Positions 3,682 through 45,207 of a stretch of 45,207 nucleotides of DNA are shown one piece after another. The notes beneath the pieces are model-generated. The model saw nothing but the letters and a program-made list of their open reading frames with translations. It had not been told where the DNA came from and ran no database searches. The stretch comes from a virus, in IMG/VR virus record IMGVR_UViG_3300022917_000005. One strand, 5' to 3'. A program made the translations under genes and the position numbers. Every line of letters starts with the position of its first letter. Position 1 is the stretch's first letter.

Positions 3682-4038
3682 CTACGCCTTGCCCGGCTTC
3701 GCATCCGCGTGCCACGGGAACGAAGCACGCCACTTGCCTTCCGCTGTCTTCAGGTCTGCGATGCGCATCGGCCGGCGCGTGGGCTGCCCTTCGAGGAAGG
3801 GCCGCGTGCGCACGGTAGTCATCTCCTGAAGCGCCTCGAGACGCCCGACCTTCATCGCGTCGAGCGCGCCCCACAACTCGTTCAGGATCCCCGCGTGCCC
3901 CGCGTTCATCGCCGGCAACTGCGCCTCGATGAGCTGCCGCGCCACCTCCGCCTGCGCTTCCTGCCGCACCACCGCGAGCGCCAGCACGCCCTCCTTGGTG
4001 TGCGGAGAGAGCAGGATTTGCTGTCCGACTTTTGCCAT
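3682..4038 (-). CDS. Hypothetical protein (118 aa), first gene of the minus arm
   Basis: ATG at 4038 (MAKVGQQILLSPHTKEG...) follows GGAAAGGAAG. The ORF-track start at 4122 is a TTG inside the operator region. Confidence 0.6.
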   Translation of the reverse strand: MAKVGQQILLSPHTKEGVLALAVVRQEAQAEVARQLIEAQLPAMNAGHAGILNELWGALDAMKVGRLEALQEMTTVRTRPFLEGQPTRRPMRIADLKTAEGKWRASFPWHADAKPGKA

Positions 4039-4108
4039 GATCTTCCTTTCCATCACCCGGACAGCCCTTCCTGGCCGCCTCCCTGTGGCTGCAATCATGG
4101 CACGTAAC

Positions 4109-4162
4109 CAGTTGAGATACAACCTAGGTCGTGCTACCTTGACGTAGTCGAGATTTCAACTG
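4109..4162. promoter_or_regulatory. Divergent promoter/operator region with two motif copies
   Basis: Plus strand: TTGAGA (4112-4117), 17 nt, TACCTT (4135-4140). Minus strand: TTGAAA (4159-4154), 17 nt, TAGCAC (4136-4131). Motif copies at 4109-4126 and 4146-4162. Confidence 0.55.
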
Positions 4163-4176
4163 AAGGGAGCGCTCAG

Positions 4177-4416
4177 GTGGACTGGGTACGGAATGCGACT
4201 ACGGGGCATTACTACGCCCGTGACGATCAGGAGCGCCCCACGCGGATTTACAAGATCACGCGGCAGGCGTACGGCAAGACAGGATGGACGTTCACCGCGT
4301 ACTTCCGCGCCTTCGGCAAGATAAACGAGGAGTTCGAGCGCATCCCGCTCTCCTTCTCCAGCCGGCTGAAGGATGCGAAGGCGTACGCCGAAAAGCACCT
4401 GAAGGAGTCGAAGTGA
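4177..4416 (+). CDS. Hypothetical protein (79 aa), first gene of the plus arm
   Basis: GTG start follows GAAGGGAG; ORF track. Confidence 0.6.
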   Translation: MDWVRNATTGHYYARDDQERPTRIYKITRQAYGKTGWTFTAYFRAFGKINEEFERIPLSFSSRLKDAKAYAEKHLKESK

Positions 4417-4601
4417 ACTTCGAGAAGGCTACGGCGTGGGTGATGGTGGCGTTGCTGCTGTTCGTCTTCACGGCCGTCATCCTGTGCAAGGCCCTGTGGC
4501 AGAGCATGGGCGCGGACTTCCCGGCCAGCGATGCCGCGCTCGCGTGCGGCCCGCTCGGCGGGGGCATCGCGTGCCTGATCCACGCGGGGAGGCTGAAGTG
4601 A
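4413..4601 (+). CDS. Small membrane protein (62 aa)
   Basis: GTGA start/stop overlap. Hydrophobic segment WVMVALLLFVFTAVILC. Confidence 0.5.
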   Translation: MNFEKATAWVMVALLLFVFTAVILCKALWQSMGADFPASDAALACGPLGGGIACLIHAGRLK

Positions 4602-5272
4602 GCGAGCTTTCCGATTACCTCGCGGAGTACGCCGAAGGTGTGGTACAGGAGTGGATGCGCCTCATCGACATTCCTGATGACATTCAGGCGCGCGTGACGT
4701 GGCTTGGCGACGATGAGTTCCGGTTGGAGATGATGGATCGCGCGGAGATTGGGCACTTCCGCCTGAAGGTCACCGTGGAGCCCGTGGACGTTCCCCCGAT
4801 CGGCCCGGAGAATGATCCGGCGCAGATCGAGGAGATGAAGGATTCTTCCTGCTCGATCTGCGGGCGCATCCTCGCTCAGCCCGAAGATCCGCTTTCCGTG
4901 GACTGCGGCGGAGACTGTCTCGGTTGCATGATCGAAGCCGAGAAGCAGATGGACACCACCCCAGACGAGTGGGTGGCGAGCACGTGGGCCATGACGGCGC
5001 TGGGTGACCGGGTGCGCATCGGGGAGAGCGAAGCCGTCATCGAGGGTTTCTCGCGCCTCCCCTGGCACAGCATCATCGAGAAGTCTTTCCACAAGCCGGA
5101 TGGCAAGTGGTGGGACAGTGTGAAGCCGTTCGAGCACACTCAGATCCACGTGAAGCTCGCGCACCTTCCCGAGGTGCTCTCGCTGCCGGCGACCGGAGAG
5201 GTGGAGATTCTCTGTTCCGTGACGCGCAAGGCGATGCTCGCTTTGGGCGGCACGTTTCCTGCGTCAGAGTGA
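4598..5272 (+). CDS. Hypothetical protein with a Cys cluster
   Basis: GTGA overlap start (VSELSDYLAEYAEG...). Contains CSICG...CGGDCLGC. Confidence 0.6.
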   Translation: MSELSDYLAEYAEGVVQEWMRLIDIPDDIQARVTWLGDDEFRLEMMDRAEIGHFRLKVTVEPVDVPPIGPENDPAQIEEMKDSSCSICGRILAQPEDPLSVDCGGDCLGCMIEAEKQMDTTPDEWVASTWAMTALGDRVRIGESEAVIEGFSRLPWHSIIEKSFHKPDGKWWDSVKPFEHTQIHVKLAHLPEVLSLPATGEVEILCSVTRKAMLALGGTFPASE

Positions 5273-5282
5273 GAACGGTGGG

Positions 5283-5423
5283 GTGGAGTGCTGCGAACGC
5301 TTCTGCAAGGTTTGCGGCCCCACTCTCCTCGATCGAGAAAAGGGCATCACCGGTAGCCCTCTGGCGGATTACCGGGAGCATCAGCGCAAGGCGCTGGACT
5401 ACCGAAGGGCGAACAAGCTGTGA
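5283..5423 (+). CDS. Possible 46-aa Cys-rich protein
   Basis: GTG start; encodes VECCERFCKVCGPTLLDREKG...; its stop overlaps the Nudix GTG (GTGA). It fills an otherwise empty 147-nt gap. Confidence 0.45.
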   Translation: MECCERFCKVCGPTLLDREKGITGSPLADYREHQRKALDYRRANKL

Positions 5424-5902
5424 TCACCTCAAACACGCGCCACCTCACGGCATCGATGGTGGTGCTCGATCCCGATGCAGCTGCGGTGCTGCTCATCTGG
5501 CACAAGGCAACCGGCAAGTGGATGTTCCCCGGCGGCCACGTCGATGAGAACGAAACCCCCGCGGAGGCGGCTCTCCGCGAGGTGCGCGAGGAGACGGGGA
5601 TGATCCCGGGGCTCTCCGTCCCTTCCCTCATCCTCACCCCCGGGGCGAAGTGGTGCCCTGCTCCATGGCTCGTGGCCGAACACCCCGCGCCGGCGAAGCC
5701 ACACAAGGGTGAGCCGGCACATCACCATATCGATGAGCTGTTCATCGGGATCGCAGACTCGCGCATCCCGCTGCCCATCACCAACGATGAAGGCGCCCCC
5801 GAAGCAATGTGGGTTCCCATCGCTGATCTCCCATCCCTCAACACCCGCGCCGATGTCCCCCACCTCGCCCCCCTGGCGCTGCGTGAGGTGCTGACGCGAT
5901 GA
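5420..5902 (+). CDS. Nudix (MutT-like) hydrolase
   Basis: GGHVDENETPAEAALREVREETG matches the Nudix box GX5EX7REUXEEXGU. Confidence 0.85.
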   Translation: MITSNTRHLTASMVVLDPDAAAVLLIWHKATGKWMFPGGHVDENETPAEAALREVREETGMIPGLSVPSLILTPGAKWCPAPWLVAEHPAPAKPHKGEPAHHHIDELFIGIADSRIPLPITNDEGAPEAMWVPIADLPSLNTRADVPHLAPLALREVLTR

Positions 5903-6474
5903 GCGATGACATGTGGGAGAGGATGACGCGCCTTCTGGCGCCCCAGGATCGAGACGCCCGTTTCCCCCAGAGGTGCCACATCGGCAGCGAAGCGTGGGAT
6001 GCACTGCGTGAACACGCGAAGGTACCGGCGCAGCCCTTCGGCTACGTTAATCAGTTCTACGGCGTGCCCATCGTGCTGGACGAGAGCTATCCGCCTGACA
6101 TCTGGCGCATCCTCGATCAGCACGGCGAGGAGATGGCTAGCGGCTCCTCACGCTTCCTCCTCTCGAAGGCGGATCTCGATGCTCGTCTTCAGGATGCCGA
6201 TGAGCACGGTGGTGGACCGGAATATGATTGCTGGGGCGTGGGTAGTCCCGATGGCCCATGCGGTGGATGCGGGCGCTGCTTTCGGATGATGGAAAGCCAC
6301 TACTTCGAAAAGTCGCGAGTGGAGGCGGCGCACTATCACGCCGCGGGCTTCGAATGGGCGCCCTACGCCATCGACCTCGGCCACTTTCCCGGCTTCGGTG
6401 GATATCACGAGAGCTACGGGTGCGCGATGGCCAAGGAGCGCCCCTTCGGCATGTTCCCGTGGGAGAAGCTGTGA
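5899..6474 (+). CDS. Hypothetical protein (191 aa)
   Basis: ATGA overlap start; ORF track. Confidence 0.65.
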   Translation: MSDDMWERMTRLLAPQDRDARFPQRCHIGSEAWDALREHAKVPAQPFGYVNQFYGVPIVLDESYPPDIWRILDQHGEEMASGSSRFLLSKADLDARLQDADEHGGGPEYDCWGVGSPDGPCGGCGRCFRMMESHYFEKSRVEAAHYHAAGFEWAPYAIDLGHFPGFGGYHESYGCAMAKERPFGMFPWEKL

Positions 6475-10917: not shown

Positions 10918-10990
10918 GTTCCTCGTAGCTTAAGTTGGCAGAGCACCGGTATCCATCCCGGGGATGTGAGTTCGAGTCTCACGGAGGACA
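10918..10990 (+). tRNA. tRNA, Trp(CCA)-like, with non-canonical anticodon arm and acceptor stem
   Basis: D arm GCTT-AAGTTGGCA-GAGC. T arm GTGAG-TTCGAGT-CTCAC. GAGCACCGGT is identical to the bacterial tRNA-Trp D/anticodon junction. The anticodon arm CCGG-TATCCATC-CCGG is 16 nt, not 17. No encoded CCA. Confidence 0.7.
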
Positions 10991-11091
10991 CTAGCCACCA
11001 ACCGTGGCCGCGAGAATGACCCTCTGGGCACTCGCACACAACTTCATACGCAGTGCACACAGTTTTTCAACGTTGATCAAAGGGGAACGCA

Positions 11092-13597: not shown

Positions 13598-13617
13598 CCA
13601 GTTCAGATGTAAACTGG
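13598..13617. repeat. Palindromic motif copy (intergenic)
   Basis: CCAGTTCAGATGTAAACTGG. Confidence 0.55.
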
Positions 13618-39587: not shown

Positions 39588-39626
39588 ACCACCAGACTAG
39601 CCATGATCAGTCGAGATGTCAACTGG
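39588..39626 (-). promoter_or_regulatory. Leaderless promoter with motif copy
   Basis: TTGACA (39622-17), 17 nt, TAGTCT (39599-94), 6 nt, ATG. Confidence 0.65.
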
Positions 39627-39817: not shown

Positions 39818-41203
39818 CTACATACGGCGCGCGCGTGGGGCTTGGCGAAGATCGAGGTAGCCGCCCACGTAGCGCGCCGTATCCATGCTGTGATCGTTCA
39901 GCTTCAGGGGCTCATCCGGCGCCGGCTTGTCCTGTGTCGTGCCAGAGCTGTTCGGCTTAGCTTTCCACACATAGCCCGTCACCTCGCCCGCGAAGCCGAT
40001 CGGCAGCGATGCGTCAGTGAGGCGCGGGTCACGCTCCACCAGTGAATCGCGACACACGAAGAGGCGATTCTCCGCCATCCGCTTCTGCATCGCCTGAATG
40101 CCCGGGCTCACGTCTTTAATGGCCGGCACGGTGCGCAGCCCGCTGTGCTTCTCGAAGGTGGCGCGGTCCTCTGCGTCGTGATCCGTGATGATCCAGTCGG
40201 GCTTTGGATACTTCCACGTCTCGCCATCCTGCTTCGTGATGCAGGGCTTGATCTTCTGCTTCCATATGTCCTCCACGAGCATCTGTGTCTGGTAGATCTC
40301 CTTCTCCAGCCACATACGCCCATCCGGATCGATCGCCCACATCTGCCACACGAACGGGTTGACGTACCCGAAGTCAATGCCCCAGATGCGTTGCCAGTCC
40401 TTCGGCAGCACCTTGCGATCCACGAGATGTACGGCGGGATTCCACCGTTCGTAGATGACACCCTCCGCGGCAGCCCATATCCCACCTTGAAGGCGCAACT
40501 TGCGAACGCCCGTCAAATTGTTAAGTTTCTTCAGATATGACTCGCCGCGCTCGGTTGCTTGGCCGGCTGCATCGAACAGGATCGGATTGTCCTGATGCAG
40601 CGAATACAGCATGACTGTCTTACCTTCGTCACATCTGAGCTTGAGCCAGTGATCCGGACCTTCTGGGTTGCAGTCTGCGAGGATCTGCTGAAATGAGATG
40701 CGCCCGTTACGCAGGCGCGAAGTGAGCTTTTCCCAGTCAGTGATGCTCAACTCTGTAGCTTCCTGCACAAAGATCACATCGTACTCAGATGACATGATCT
40801 TCGTGGCGTTGTCCATCCCGCCCACGATGATCTGTGATCCGTTACCGTAGATAAACTGCGCCGGATCCGCGCCCGATCCCCCGTACCACTTCAGCAAGCC
40901 CATTGAGAGCGCTTCTACCGCTACGTGCTGCTTGAACGTCACCAAACCCGTGGATGTGAGGGAGTTGTGAGTCTTGCGCACGATGAGAGCGCGCATCCCG
41001 CGATCGTGGTGCTCGTGCTCGATCTTGCATCCACGCACACACGCGCCGTTCTTCAGGCACATCATGTGGATCTTCCACAGCGCGCCGAAGCTCTTGCCCG
41101 TGCCCGCGGCGCCACAGATCAGCACCTCATCCTCGCGCCGGCTGAACAGCTCACGCGATGCCCCGCGCAGCTCCAGCCGCTTCGTCAGTACGTCGGTAGA
41201 CAT
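39818..41203 (-). CDS. terL: Terminase large subunit
   Basis: 461 aa; Walker A GAAGTGKS; Walker-B-like VIFVQEATE; C-terminal nuclease-size domain. Confidence 0.85.
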   Translation of the reverse strand: MSTDVLTKRLELRGASRELFSRREDEVLICGAAGTGKSFGALWKIHMMCLKNGACVRGCKIEHEHHDRGMRALIVRKTHNSLTSTGLVTFKQHVAVEALSMGLLKWYGGSGADPAQFIYGNGSQIIVGGMDNATKIMSSEYDVIFVQEATELSITDWEKLTSRLRNGRISFQQILADCNPEGPDHWLKLRCDEGKTVMLYSLHQDNPILFDAAGQATERGESYLKKLNNLTGVRKLRLQGGIWAAAEGVIYERWNPAVHLVDRKVLPKDWQRIWGIDFGYVNPFVWQMWAIDPDGRMWLEKEIYQTQMLVEDIWKQKIKPCITKQDGETWKYPKPDWIITDHDAEDRATFEKHSGLRTVPAIKDVSPGIQAMQKRMAENRLFVCRDSLVERDPRLTDASLPIGFAGEVTGYVWKAKPNSSGTTQDKPAPDEPLKLNDHSMDTARYVGGYLDLRQAPRARRM

Positions 41204-41486: not shown

Positions 41487-41534
41487 ACCAGAAGTGTAGC
41501 CCCACCCAGTTCAGATGTCAACTGGGTGGGGCTA
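41487..41534 (-). promoter_or_regulatory. Leaderless promoter cassette inside a 38-bp perfect-arm palindrome
   Basis: TTGACA, 17 nt, TACACT, 6 nt, ATG. Arms TAGCCCCACCCAGTT / AACTGGGTGGGGCTA span 41497-41534. Confidence 0.7.
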
Positions 41535-41540
41535 GGTGGA

Positions 41541-41768
41541 TCAGGCCACCCGGTAGAAGCGCCCCGGCATGATCTCCGGGCCGGAGAAAAACAGCTCGTT
41601 CAGGAAGTCGCGCGTCTCGCCGATGATCAGGCCCTTGCGCTCCAGCGAGTCAATCGCGTTACCGTTCGCGCCCGCGAGCTGAAATGCGGTGCGCTCCAGC
41701 TCGCCGGCCGCGGTGAGGATCTCCAGCGCCTTCGCCTGCGTCTTCGGGAGGTTCTGCGTCATCGTCAT
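41541..41768 (-). CDS. Leaderless 75-aa protein, possibly winged-helix-like
   Basis: ORF track. The first 5 codons (MTMTQ) are identical at nucleotide level to those of 43308..43583. Confidence 0.6.
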   Translation of the reverse strand: MTMTQNLPKTQAKALEILTAAGELERTAFQLAGANGNAIDSLERKGLIIGETRDFLNELFFSGPEIMPGRFYRVA

Positions 41769-41807
41769 ACCAGAAGTGTAGCCCCACTCAGTTCAGATGT
41801 CAACTGG
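41769..41807 (-). promoter_or_regulatory. Leaderless promoter cassette
   Basis: The 46 nt upstream of the ATG differ at 1 position from cassette 41487-41525. Confidence 0.7.
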
Positions 41808-41957
41808 CTACCAGCGAGGCAGGCGAGAGATCAAATACAGCAGTGCGCCGGCCAGGGGAGCAACCCCCTGAGACAAGCCCGCATCCCGAATCTTCTCGAT
41901 GAGGCGGGCTGCCTCGCGCTCAGCCCCGGTCGTTGAACGTGCCCGCCTGCTTGTCAC
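41808..41957 (-). CDS. Possible 49-aa tail-anchored peptide (paralog of the post-terS extension)
   Basis: GTG start; ends ...GLSQGVAPLAGALLYLISRLPRW*. Differs from 42193..42261 mainly at synonymous positions. Confidence 0.35.
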   Translation of the reverse strand: MTSRRARSTTGAEREAARLIEKIRDAGLSQGVAPLAGALLYLISRLPRW

Positions 41958-42153
41958 TGGCTTTCCGCCAGCCGTTTCCACGGCGGTTGTTTATGTTACC
42001 GAAAAGCCGAAACTCGATGCGGGTCTCGGTAACCTCGCGCATCGATGCGCCACCGTCTACCTGGACCATGTGACGATACGTATTCCGGTACGCTTCACGG
42101 CTGGTTCCGTCCGCCATCTCGACCGTGCCCTTGATGCTCTCCATCAGCTTCAT
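41920..42153 (-). CDS. Leaderless hypothetical protein (77 aa)
   Basis: ORF track; ATG 6 nt after the TACGCT -10 box. Confidence 0.6.
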   Translation of the reverse strand: MKLMESIKGTVEMADGTSREAYRNTYRHMVQVDGGASMREVTETRIEFRLFGNINNRRGNGWRKASDKQAGTFNDRG

Positions 42154-42192
42154 ACCAACAGCGTAGTCTTACCCAGTTCAGATGTCAACTGG
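42154..42192 (-). promoter_or_regulatory. Leaderless promoter cassette
   Basis: TTGACA, 17 nt, TACGCT, 6 nt, ATG. Confidence 0.65.
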
Positions 42193-42252
42193 TTACCAGC
42201 GAGGAAGCCGAGAAATCAAGTACAGCAGTGCGCCGGCCAGGAGAGCAATCCC

Positions 42253-42759
42253 CTACGACAGGTCCTCAGGGTCGATGCCTACCAGCTCGTAGCGCACGCT
42301 GCCCTGAATCTCCAGCTTGCCGGCAGCGTCGAGCCCCATGAGCTTCCTGGTCTCCGCGTCCATCTTCGCCGCCGTCTCGATCGCGCGCAGCTTGCCGGTG
42401 TAGTCGCGCACCACCTCGCCGTTCTCGTCATAGAAGATCGAGCCATCCTTGCCCACCGCCACGGGGGCAGCCGCGAGATCTGCGATCTCGAGCGCGCGCT
42501 CAGTCAGCTCCGCGTACAGCCCCAGACTCTGCTGCCGCATCTCATCGAGGTCCGGCGCGGGGATGTTGGCACGAACTTCGCGGATAATCTCAGAAACGCG
42601 CTGCTGCGAAATTCCGAGATCATCCGCGATCTGCTCTTGATTCTGGCGATAGACCGTGTACAGGCGCCAAACCTGGCCGTTGCGCCCTTCGTAGCGAGCT
42701 GCGCCCCGTTGTCCACGGCGCTCCCTCATGGCACGGGCAAGCTCATCGCCGGCACTCAT
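42253..42759 (-). CDS. terS: Terminase small subunit (sigma-70 region-4-like HTH)
   Basis: QEQIADDLGISQQRVSEIIREV HTH. ATG at 42759 after GGGAG; alternative start at 42828. Ends in TAG at 42255-42253. Confidence 0.65.
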   Translation of the reverse strand: MSAGDELARAMRERRGQRGAARYEGRNGQVWRLYTVYRQNQEQIADDLGISQQRVSEIIREVRANIPAPDLDEMRQQSLGLYAELTERALEIADLAAAPVAVGKDGSIFYDENGEVVRDYTGKLRAIETAAKMDAETRKLMGLDAAGKLEIQGSVRYELVGIDPEDLS

Positions 42760-42957
42760 GATGATCAACTCCCACGGGGGCTCACTAGACAGGTCTGTCT
42801 GCCAGGGTAGCTTATGGAGGGGCGCCATCGCTTCCGGTACGCCCTGTCAGCCGATCATAGATCGCGCGCCCCAGCACAGCCATCTGACGTACTCGCGTGT
42901 TCAGCGCAGCTACTCGATGCAAACGCTGAACGCCTTCTGTTAAGAAGGTTTACAACT

Positions 42958-43277: not shown

Positions 43278-43309
43278 AAAGAGGGGCGCCCCCGCGCCCC
43301 CGCCCCCTC
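43274..43309 (-). terminator. Terminator after CDS 43308..43583
   Basis: Minus strand reads GAGGGGGCG...CGCCCCTC followed by TTTAGTT. Confidence 0.5.
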
Positions 43310-43583
43310 ACTCCTCGAAAGCGGCAACCTCCGCTGCGATCATCTCCGCGGTCCACACGATCTGGCACTCGCACTTGCGGGTGCCCTCCGCCAGCTCGCG
43401 GAACATCTGCACCTCCATCGCCACACCCGAGGTGGTGATCTCCCCCAGCTCGCCATCCTCGATCAAGCCCTGCTCGATCATCACCTCCGCGTTCGCCTCG
43501 AAGCACCCCAGGTCGTGACCTGCCTCGGCAGCGATCATGCGCTCGATCTCGGCCCGCTCTGTGTGCTCCTGCGTCATCGTCAT
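43308..43583 (-). CDS. Leaderless acidic hypothetical protein (91 aa)
   Basis: ORF track; ATG 6 nt after the TAGACT -10 box. Confidence 0.6.
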   Translation of the reverse strand: MTMTQEHTERAEIERMIAAEAGHDLGCFEANAEVMIEQGLIEDGELGEITTSGVAMEVQMFRELAEGTRKCECQIVWTAEMIAAEVAAFEE

Positions 43584-43622
43584 ACCAGTAGTCTAGCCAC
43601 ACCCAGTTCAGATGTCAACTGG
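43584..43622 (-). promoter_or_regulatory. Leaderless promoter cassette
   Basis: TTGACA, 17 nt, TAGACT, 6 nt, ATG. Confidence 0.65.
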
Positions 43623-44903: not shown

Positions 44904-45207
44904 TGCTCCCGCCCCACATACTCCGCGCCGCTCTCCAACCCACGCTCGGGCGAAGAAACCATCGAAGGCGACCACCCTGCCTCGATGAAGCGCATCCCCG
45001 CCTCGAAGCTGGACATCATTGAGCCTGCGAACATGCAGGGATTCTCCGTCATCCACCGCACCAGCTCCCCCGCAGTCTGAAAAACCGGAGAAGCGGGAGA
45101 TCCCTCCGTGGTGGTCTCCCAGAGCTGATATCCGGGACCTTCCGGAGGATCGATGCTCACCCACGCTTCGTAGAAGTTTTCCTCCTCTTCCTCCGAAAGC
45201 CCGTCCG
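44900..45207 (-). CDS. C-terminal part of the junction-spanning hypothetical CDS (see 1..209)
   Basis: The ORF-track ORF 44900..45160 continues upstream in frame through the window end. Confidence 0.6.
   Translation of the reverse strand, partial: DGLSEEEEENFYEAWVSIDPPEGPGYQLWETTTEGSPASPVFQTAGELVRWMTENPCMFAGSMMSSFEAGMRFIEAGWSPSMVSSPERGLESGAEYVGREQ
45081..45207. repeat. Terminal direct repeat copy 2
   Basis: Identical to 1-127. Confidence 0.9.

Follow-up and report, generated by a model that had tools for sequence, protein, structure and literature searches.

A hydrophobic tail behind a putative phage small terminase gene as a likely remnant of a separate small gene duplicated at a moron junction

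We analyzed a 45,207-nt stretch of viral DNA (IMG/VR virus record IMGVR_UViG_3300022917_000005, hereafter the window), in which the frame of a putative small terminase gene, terS, continues past its amber stop into a short hydrophobic tail that recurs a few hundred nucleotides away. Judged from the nucleotide sequence and its relatives, this tail is likely to be a 5'-truncated pseudogene remnant of a 29-codon small gene that was duplicated at a moron junction, rather than an extension of TerS. The arrangement is an ordinary product of phage mosaic evolution. The initial annotation had offered three explanations: leaky amber readthrough, truncation of a tailed TerS, and mosaic recombination beside the conserved promoter with a coding relic left behind. 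The last of these was essentially right, the relic being the 3' part of the 29-codon ORF and the joint corresponding to the gain or loss of a 77-aa gene cassette.

The window is a 45,080-bp genome assembled as a circle, with positions 1-127 recurring at 45081-45207. Its GC content is 63%, its long ORFs are intact under the standard code, and the nearest known TerL proteins are those of Thermobifida and Streptomyces phages at 45-48% identity. Nucleotide and protein searches among the INPHARED phages gave no match to the terS region. Every gene near the tail copies lies on the minus strand. The features of this region are as follows.

42253-42759, minus strand: putative small terminase gene terS from the ORF list, 168 aa from the ATG at 42759, ending ...VGIDPEDLS and TAG.
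42253-42255, minus strand: the terS stop codon TAG.
42193-42252, minus strand: tail copy A, 19 sense codons (GIALLAGALLYLISRLPRW) and TAA, startless, homologous to a small ORF of two relatives (L001 and L003).
42150-42192, minus strand: promoter copy A, a consensus match with CCAGTTGACATCTGAACTGG, a 17-nt spacer, TACGCT, 6 nt and ATG.
41920-42153, minus strand: 77-aa gene from the ORF list, a moron-like cassette that two sister strains (L010 and L011) lack.
41877-41919, minus strand: spacer from the 77-aa gene stop to copy B, open in the tail frame (AEREAARLIEKIRDAG), with no homologue anywhere.
41808-41876, minus strand: tail copy B, LSQGVAPLAGALLYLISRLPRW and TAG; to the right of and including 41856 it is identical in sequence to the one tail copy that L010 and L011 have.
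41765-41807, minus strand: promoter copy B, with TTGACA, a 17-nt spacer, TACACT, 6 nt and ATG, serving the 75-aa gene.
41541-41768, minus strand: 75-aa gene from the ORF list, directly after terS in L010 and L011.
41727-41883, minus strand: direct repeat unit with its partner at 42112-42268, 157 nt, 78% identity, 385-nt spacing.

The name terS rests on an N-terminal HTH, the size of the protein and its position upstream of TerL, and on these grounds the assignment of the 168-aa protein is reasonable. The protein combines an N-terminal HTH with a helical oligomerisation region, falls within the range of about 150-180 aa and is encoded upstream of TerL; its AF2 model has a mean pLDDT of 87 and shows the HTH followed by long helices. 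The longest ORF of this frame begins at 42828. Family searches gave Sigma70_r4/HTH matches below the cut-off in Pfam, phrog_645 (labelled 'Rnase E') in PHROGs and nothing above the cut-off in NCBIfam. A sequence search of the PDB gave no match, and Foldseek of the model against the PDB matched the HTH region alone, with all E values above 0.3. The label given in the initial annotation is reasonable when drawn from HTH, size and place, and does not hold as a family match, none being found.

A protein search with TerS returned 70 homologues, and about 65 of them, those examined, share the conserved C-terminus ...VG[VI]DxxDL[S/T]. The homologous gene lies directly upstream of TerL in one relative (L020) and one gene away in another (L008). 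Gene 002 of Thermobifida phage P1312 overlaps TerL and has its C-terminal half in common with the window TerS. Scanning with the terS alignment produced no match in metagenome_contigs and a single match in genome_contigs, an uninformative one at 30% identity in an alphaproteobacterial MAG.

Translation of the minus strand gives LS, a stop, GIALLAGALLYLISRLPRW and a stop from 42261 to 42193, and LSQGVAPLAGALLYLISRLPRW and a stop from 41876 to 41808. Alignment reproduced exactly the two hydrophobic copies and the count of differences reported at the outset: 10 of 69 positions differ, seven of them synonymously (TAA/TAG included), with the remainder being I/V, L/P and TAG/CAG. Copy B opens with a degenerate version of the last terS codons (TTG TCT CAG versus CTG TCG TAG). 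Copies A and B are both part of the 157-nt direct repeat, which contains the tail, a conserved promoter and the first codons of the downstream gene; their similarity is not chance. The A-type tail sequence reads …TACTTGATTTCTCGGCTTCCTCGCTGGTAA.

In the promoter motif, CCAGTTGACATCTGAACTGG precedes a -10 hexamer (TACACT, TAGACT or TACGCT), 6 nt and ATG. The motif occurs eight times on the minus strand, and the tail lies upstream of two of the eight copies only. Promoter copy A apparently drives the 77-aa gene as a leaderless transcript. Copy B is in the +1 frame relative to the 77-aa gene, as had been noted. The GTG at 41957 had also been named as the only candidate start of this frame; this needs correction, since a GTG at 41981 opens a 57-aa ORF and copy B itself begins with TTG (41876-41874). 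Searches of 5.8 billion proteins and 1.84 billion cluster representatives found no homologue of the 57-aa frame, which argues against its being the end of some longer conserved protein.

The two closest sampled relatives are L001 (IMG/VR UViG 3300023275_000071), with a TerS 77% identical to that of the window, and L003 (JGI Ga0247761_1000003), at 80%. In both genomes the tail sequence forms the 3' two-thirds of a separate 29-codon ORF, MNAWFWVG..LIYLIARLPRW, with the full pattern MNAWFWVG-x-G-x-VG-x-LLAALIYLIARLPRW. Their terS ends in TGA, this stop overlaps the start of the small ORF, and the small ORF runs in the +2 frame. The junction is TC-ATG-A in L003 (an ATGA overlap, giving MNAWFWVGMGVVGTLLAALIYLIARLPRW and a stop) and TC-GTG-A in L001 (a GTGA overlap, giving (M)NAWFWVGVGGVGALLAALIYLIARLPRW and a stop). 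A gene caller had already called the L003 ORF as a 29-aa gene. The protein collection holds four distinct variants on separate contigs, all of 29 aa and differing by conservative changes only.

Translationally coupled small ORFs with 4-nt ATGA or GTGA stop-start overlaps occur in phage late operons. The 29-codon ORF of L001 and L003 resembles them in starting within the terS stop and in having its Shine-Dalgarno sequence in the 3' end of terS, where GAGGA lies 6 nt upstream of the start within the codons for P-E-D; by this architecture it would be translated by coupling to terS. The window differs in having no overlapping start and in retaining no more than the 3' two-thirds of the ORF. In the intact peptide, 22 uncharged residues in a row precede RLPRW, and it looks like a single-pass membrane micro-protein. 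It has no Pfam family, and its sole PHROG match is not significant (E 0.47). In more distant relatives, at 63-71% TerS identity, terS is followed variously by an HNH gene, by small genes of no relation to this one, by a promoter or by TerL. A degenerate DNA pattern for YLIxRLPRW-stop, applied to viral and metagenome contigs, recovered the L001 and L003 contigs and three AT-rich chance matches only.

The window lineage has lost the start codon and ten codons of this ORF (29-30 nt). In a MAFFT alignment against the intact ORF, the gap is 30 nt in L010 and 29 nt in copies A and B, and the same alignment contains a further one-codon indel beyond the deletion. The MNAWFWVG segment is absent from the window copies, which have uncharged runs of 14 (A) and 10 (B) residues. 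Neither the window copies nor L010 have ATG or GTG at the position of the small-ORF start; L010 has GTA. The window tails keep the family C-terminus ...LLA.ALxYLI[SA]RLPRW and stop, directly upstream of the promoter.

The sister strains L010 (ERZ27228596) and L011 (ERZ27228476) are independent assemblies with a TerS 100% identical to that of the window. Their gene order is terS, one tail, promoter, 75-aa gene, 79-aa gene and TerL, and they lack the 385-nt unit that carries the 77-aa gene. Their tail lies in the +2 frame relative to terS, as the intact small ORF does; a TGA precedes it by five codons, and ATG, GTG and TTG are lacking. They have GTA at the former start codon because terS stops with TAG instead of TGA. 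Their junction, TCGTAGGGG-TTGCCCTCC, has one base less than that of window copy A (TCGTAGGGGATTGCTCTCC). The window is identical to L010 at every base from 44526 to 42250 (2.28 kb), and again beyond a single block of differences until 41118, except at 41788. The two features that define this junction are as follows.

42249, minus strand: single extra A relative to L010 and L011, the first difference after 2.28 kb, which shifts the remnant into the terS frame.
41857-42249, minus strand: block with every window-L010 difference but one (41788), ending inside copies A and B.

A tail in frame with terS is therefore found in window copy A alone, and it arises exactly at the breakpoint 42249/42250.

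The substitution pattern had been read as selection on the tail peptide. With random placement of changes, the synonymous excess is modestly significant, with a P of about 0.016 between copies A and B and of about 0.004-0.007 between copy A and the tail of L010; read in either of the two remaining frames, no more than 0-1 of 6 changes are synonymous. Compared with L001, third codon positions of the window tails hold 8-11 of 13-17 differences. Divergence of the tail from L001 (dN 0.16-0.20, dS 0.7-1.1) is the same as that of terS (dN 0.17, dS 0.98), so that, through most of the period after the lineages of L001 and the window parted, the tail stretch was evolving as coding sequence in step with terS. 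An antisense frame was considered as the source of this pattern and rejected; the third positions of the tail are the first positions of an open antisense frame.

Polarized against L001, 4-5 of the 7 positions at which copy A and L010 differ are assigned to the copy-A branch, all of them synonymous. The terS flank has zero substitutions relative to L010. A substituted copy A next to an unchanged terS flank indicates that the changes in copy A predate its place beside this terS, so that they provide no evidence of selection on a readthrough product. Selection on the peptide thus stands as a historical signal and cannot be assigned to the present startless copies.

One alternative is that the shortened peptide of about 19-22 aa is itself a functional micro-ORF, starting at TTG 41876 in copy B or at ATT or CTG in copy A. 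The low dN/dS among the truncated copies (about 0.07-0.2) is consistent with this, as is the deletion in L010 and L011, which is in frame and exactly ten codons (30 nt) long, with few amino-acid changes in the truncated copies. A TTG heads copy B, where a 22-codon ORF is possible in principle, and both copy A and the tail of L010 still have the GAGGA Shine-Dalgarno sequence ahead of them. However, copies A, B and that of L010 share no start codon, and the start position in L010 is GTA. A proline lies in the hydrophobic run of copy B, runs of 10-14 residues are too short for a membrane span, and the copies are called by no gene caller and absent from the protein collection. We consider a functional micro-ORF unlikely.

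Related readings may be separated from it. That there was once a functional short form of the peptide that still had its start, or that copy B is now translated at a low level from its TTG, is rather improbable even when the two are taken together. It is quite improbable that the 29-aa terS-coupled peptide is a functional membrane micro-protein of packaging or the late operon whose 19-22-aa forms are still made, either by amber readthrough in copy A or from TTG or a non-canonical start in copy B. If true, this would explain the near absence of amino-acid changes since truncation.

A second alternative is that the tail stretch is conserved as DNA or RNA in its own right, serving for instance as UP element of the promoter, as operator, as terminator or as packaging site. 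The tail always abuts the promoter, each copy has a weak 5-bp terminator-like hairpin (CGGCGCACTGCTG and then a T-rich run), and the folds of both copies include a small GGGGRTTGCTCYCC hairpin. Predicted folds are, however, no stabler than those of shuffled sequences (z 0.0 to 0.6), six other promoter copies lack the tail stretch, and in L001 and L003 the tail lies upstream of a differently spaced promoter. Third-position substitutions and indels in multiples of three across the clade are a protein-coding signature, and an element of this kind appears very unlikely.

Readthrough of the terS amber stop, giving a fraction of TerS with a hydrophobic C-terminal tail kept by selection, was the first explanation offered. 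The Qbeta A1 protein is made in a comparable way, by UGA readthrough of the coat gene, and the window has in common with it an open frame past the stop, 19 codons long, and coding-type conservation; most synonymous changes also fall on the copy-A branch. The window differs in that the frame relation varies among strains with identical TerS and that the peptide of the relatives is a separate gene. The in-frame state hangs on the A at 42249, which is absent in L010 and L011, where the same TerS is followed by an out-of-frame tail. The left flank shows no difference from L010 over 2.28 kb, so the junction postdates the substitutions that readthrough must explain. In L001 and L003, terS stops with TGA and the peptide is encoded separately, by an ORF that has a start of its own. 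Among the approximately 65 homologues examined the C-terminus of TerS does not vary in length, the hydrophobic run is only 14 residues long, and no suppressor tRNA was found. Taken together, these observations make readthrough highly improbable.

TAG is not recoded either. Phages with genetic code 15 reassign TAG to glutamine, and the alignment of TAG in copy A with CAG in copy B recalls this. The window differs in that table 11 leaves its long genes unbroken (ORFs of 943, 719, 670, 666, 634, 513 and 461 aa) and that TAG ends TerL and the 943-aa gene. ARAGORN reported one aberrant tRNA-like match in the window and no CUA anticodon. A programmed -1 or +1 frameshift from terS into the tail was rejected, there being no slippery heptamer in the five codons after TGA.

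Least probable of all is a tailed ancestral TerS with CAG as in copy B, recently cut by a CAG-to-TAG nonsense mutation: copy B does have CAG at the homologous codon, preceded by L-S like the end of TerS, but L001 and L003 stop at that codon and have the tail in another frame with its own start, the roughly 65 TerS homologues examined end in DL[S/T] without a hydrophobic extension, no terS lies upstream of copy B, and its copied last terS codons (3 of 9 nt differ) are more degenerate than the tail. The conserved TerS ends and the position of the stop in the outgroups rule out such an ancestor. The proposed test of whether related terS 3' ends have CAG or TAG gave neither CAG nor a uniform stop, the stop and following base being TAG-G in the window, L010 and L011 and TGA-A in L001 and L003.

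The preferred reading, a remnant duplicated at a moron junction, can be set out as a series of events. A deletion of about 30 nt in the window lineage removed ten codons of the small gene, and a change of the terS stop from TGA to TAG turned the overlapping start position into GTA. What remained is a startless remnant of 19-20 codons abutting the conserved promoter, and remnant and promoter together make up the repeat of about 100-157 nt on either side of the 77-aa moron. The cassette was probably gained or lost by recombination within this repeat, since L010 and L011 are shorter by precisely one 385-nt unit. The body of copy A would derive from a more diverged lineage and would have been joined to this terS at 42249/42250, a join that by chance placed it in frame behind TAG. 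The third-position excess would then date back to a stage at which both parental lineages had a working small gene. The donor of copy A probably carried an intact small gene, and the remnants are presumably not translated.

The 77-aa cassette sits between terS and the 75-aa gene, which are adjacent in L010 and L011, and accounts for an extra 385 nt. It probably came in through recombination between homologous tail and promoter sequences. Insertion is favoured over deletion as the direction of the event because one contiguous block explains all differences but one. Had the exact sequence of the window simply lost the unit, some three additional changes in a span of 12 nt would be required; loss from an ancestor that differed a little is possible. 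Elsewhere, homologues of the 77-aa gene are found in different genomic surroundings and bring promoters of their own, one of them (in L023) with a promoter of the same type as the consensus match that serves the window gene. The donor of copy A was sought via these homologues and not found, no tail being near them. A terminator search of the cassette detected the weak 5-bp hairpin inside the tail only.

The concept of morons and mosaic junctions reportedly goes back to Hendrix and colleagues. Morons of phages, and mosaic junctions located at short boundary sequences that are conserved, have been summarized (PMC3029335). The cassette resembles such morons in being a single ORF, the 77-aa gene, with its own promoter between genes that are adjacent in sister genomes, in having its junctions in a short repeat beside conserved promoters and in having homologues in other contexts. 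It differs in that the boundary repeat includes a coding remnant and not regulatory DNA alone. The region thus provides a base-resolved case of moron gain or loss with breakpoints in a promoter-adjacent repeat. It also illustrates that a codon-like substitution pattern can outlast the gene in a pseudogene and mislead the reading of a single genome. The claim of a membrane-anchored fraction of TerS made by amber readthrough, attractive but unsupported, is removed.

A by-product of the comparison is an unannotated, conserved 29-aa hydrophobic ORF that is apparently coupled to terS, a minor lead for small-protein catalogues. Small micro-proteins of phages and microbiomes have been catalogued (PMC11364881). 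Like hydrophobic micro-proteins of this kind, the intact 29-aa peptide is a conserved single helix without family assignment; it differs in being found in a narrow clade of uncultivated actinophage-like genomes only.

A possible third copy of the tail, inside a 117-aa ORF at 691-719, was also considered and rejected, the 29-nt match (79-83% identity) being within the range of chance families. The protein of the 117-aa ORF at this match is conserved in L001 as ...ALLADA...

Eight near-identical predicted promoters on the minus strand of the window form one family, with members at the following positions:

518-537, minus, promoter
874-893, minus, promoter
13598-13617, minus, promoter
39607-39626, minus, promoter
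41506-41525, minus, promoter
41788-41807, minus, promoter
42173-42192, minus, promoter
43603-43622, minus, promoter

The family has a palindrome, CCAGTT-N8-AACTGG, that contains TTGACA. Next come a spacer of 17 nt and a -10 hexamer (TACACT, TAGACT or TACGCT), and after a further 6 nt a small gene begins with ATG. The layout suggests that the transcripts are leaderless and that the eight promoters share a common operator. Related motifs were also detected in three relatives (L019, L023 and L004).

A short match to the start of the two tails, the related stretches at 42193-42261 and 41808-41876, was found in another small ORF:

508-861, minus, 117-aa ORF holding the tail-like stretch 691-719

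These 29 nt are 79-83% identical to the tails in the same reading frame (EEVALLADA...), and CCTCGCTGGT is located nearby, at approximately 598-607 of the same ORF. The likeness is probably due to chance, because the homologue in the close relative L001 keeps this protein segment as ...ALLADA...

The 117-aa ORF borders an intergenic region:

900-1100, GCGTACG cluster between a 719-aa primase/helicase-like gene and the 117-aa ORF

GCGTACG has 20 matches genome-wide compared to 4.9 expected, seven of which are packed into 160 nt of this region, together with a long palindrome that has C8/G6 runs: CCACGTACAGTACCCCCCCCTCTTAGGGGGGTACGTGG. Candidate roles for this region are an origin, a set of iterons or regulation. 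The window carries an exact terminal direct repeat of 127 nt (1-127 = 45081-45207), and it is therefore a 45,080 bp genome, circularly assembled or permuted.

Comparison with the sister strains revealed localized divergence. Approximately 200 nt at 43278-43472 differ from L011 (9-203) by 27 mismatches while the strains are near-identical elsewhere, and L010 matches the window throughout this part. The stretch forms a second mosaic patch, and its mismatches fall in one gene:

43308-43583, 91-aa gene

Differences from L010 in the large terminase (TerL) are bunched at 40498-40532 and 40902-40988 rather than evenly spread, which is consistent with short recombination tracts within this gene. In the relative L008 (NCBI GCA_040384205.1), TerL is 784 aa long (3926-6280) and has a weak intein-splicing Pfam match, suggesting that it may contain an intein.

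The top PHROG match of the TerS-like HTH protein (42253-42759, minus) is phrog_645, labeled "Rnase E", which looks like a misannotation propagated onto a putative small terminase and its homologues. In Streptomyces phage Geonosis, a neighbor of TerL carries this label too. ARAGORN reported a tRNA-like structure at 10918-10991 (plus) whose "anticodon" is aberrant, at 2 nt; the hit is likely either spurious or a degenerate tRNA.
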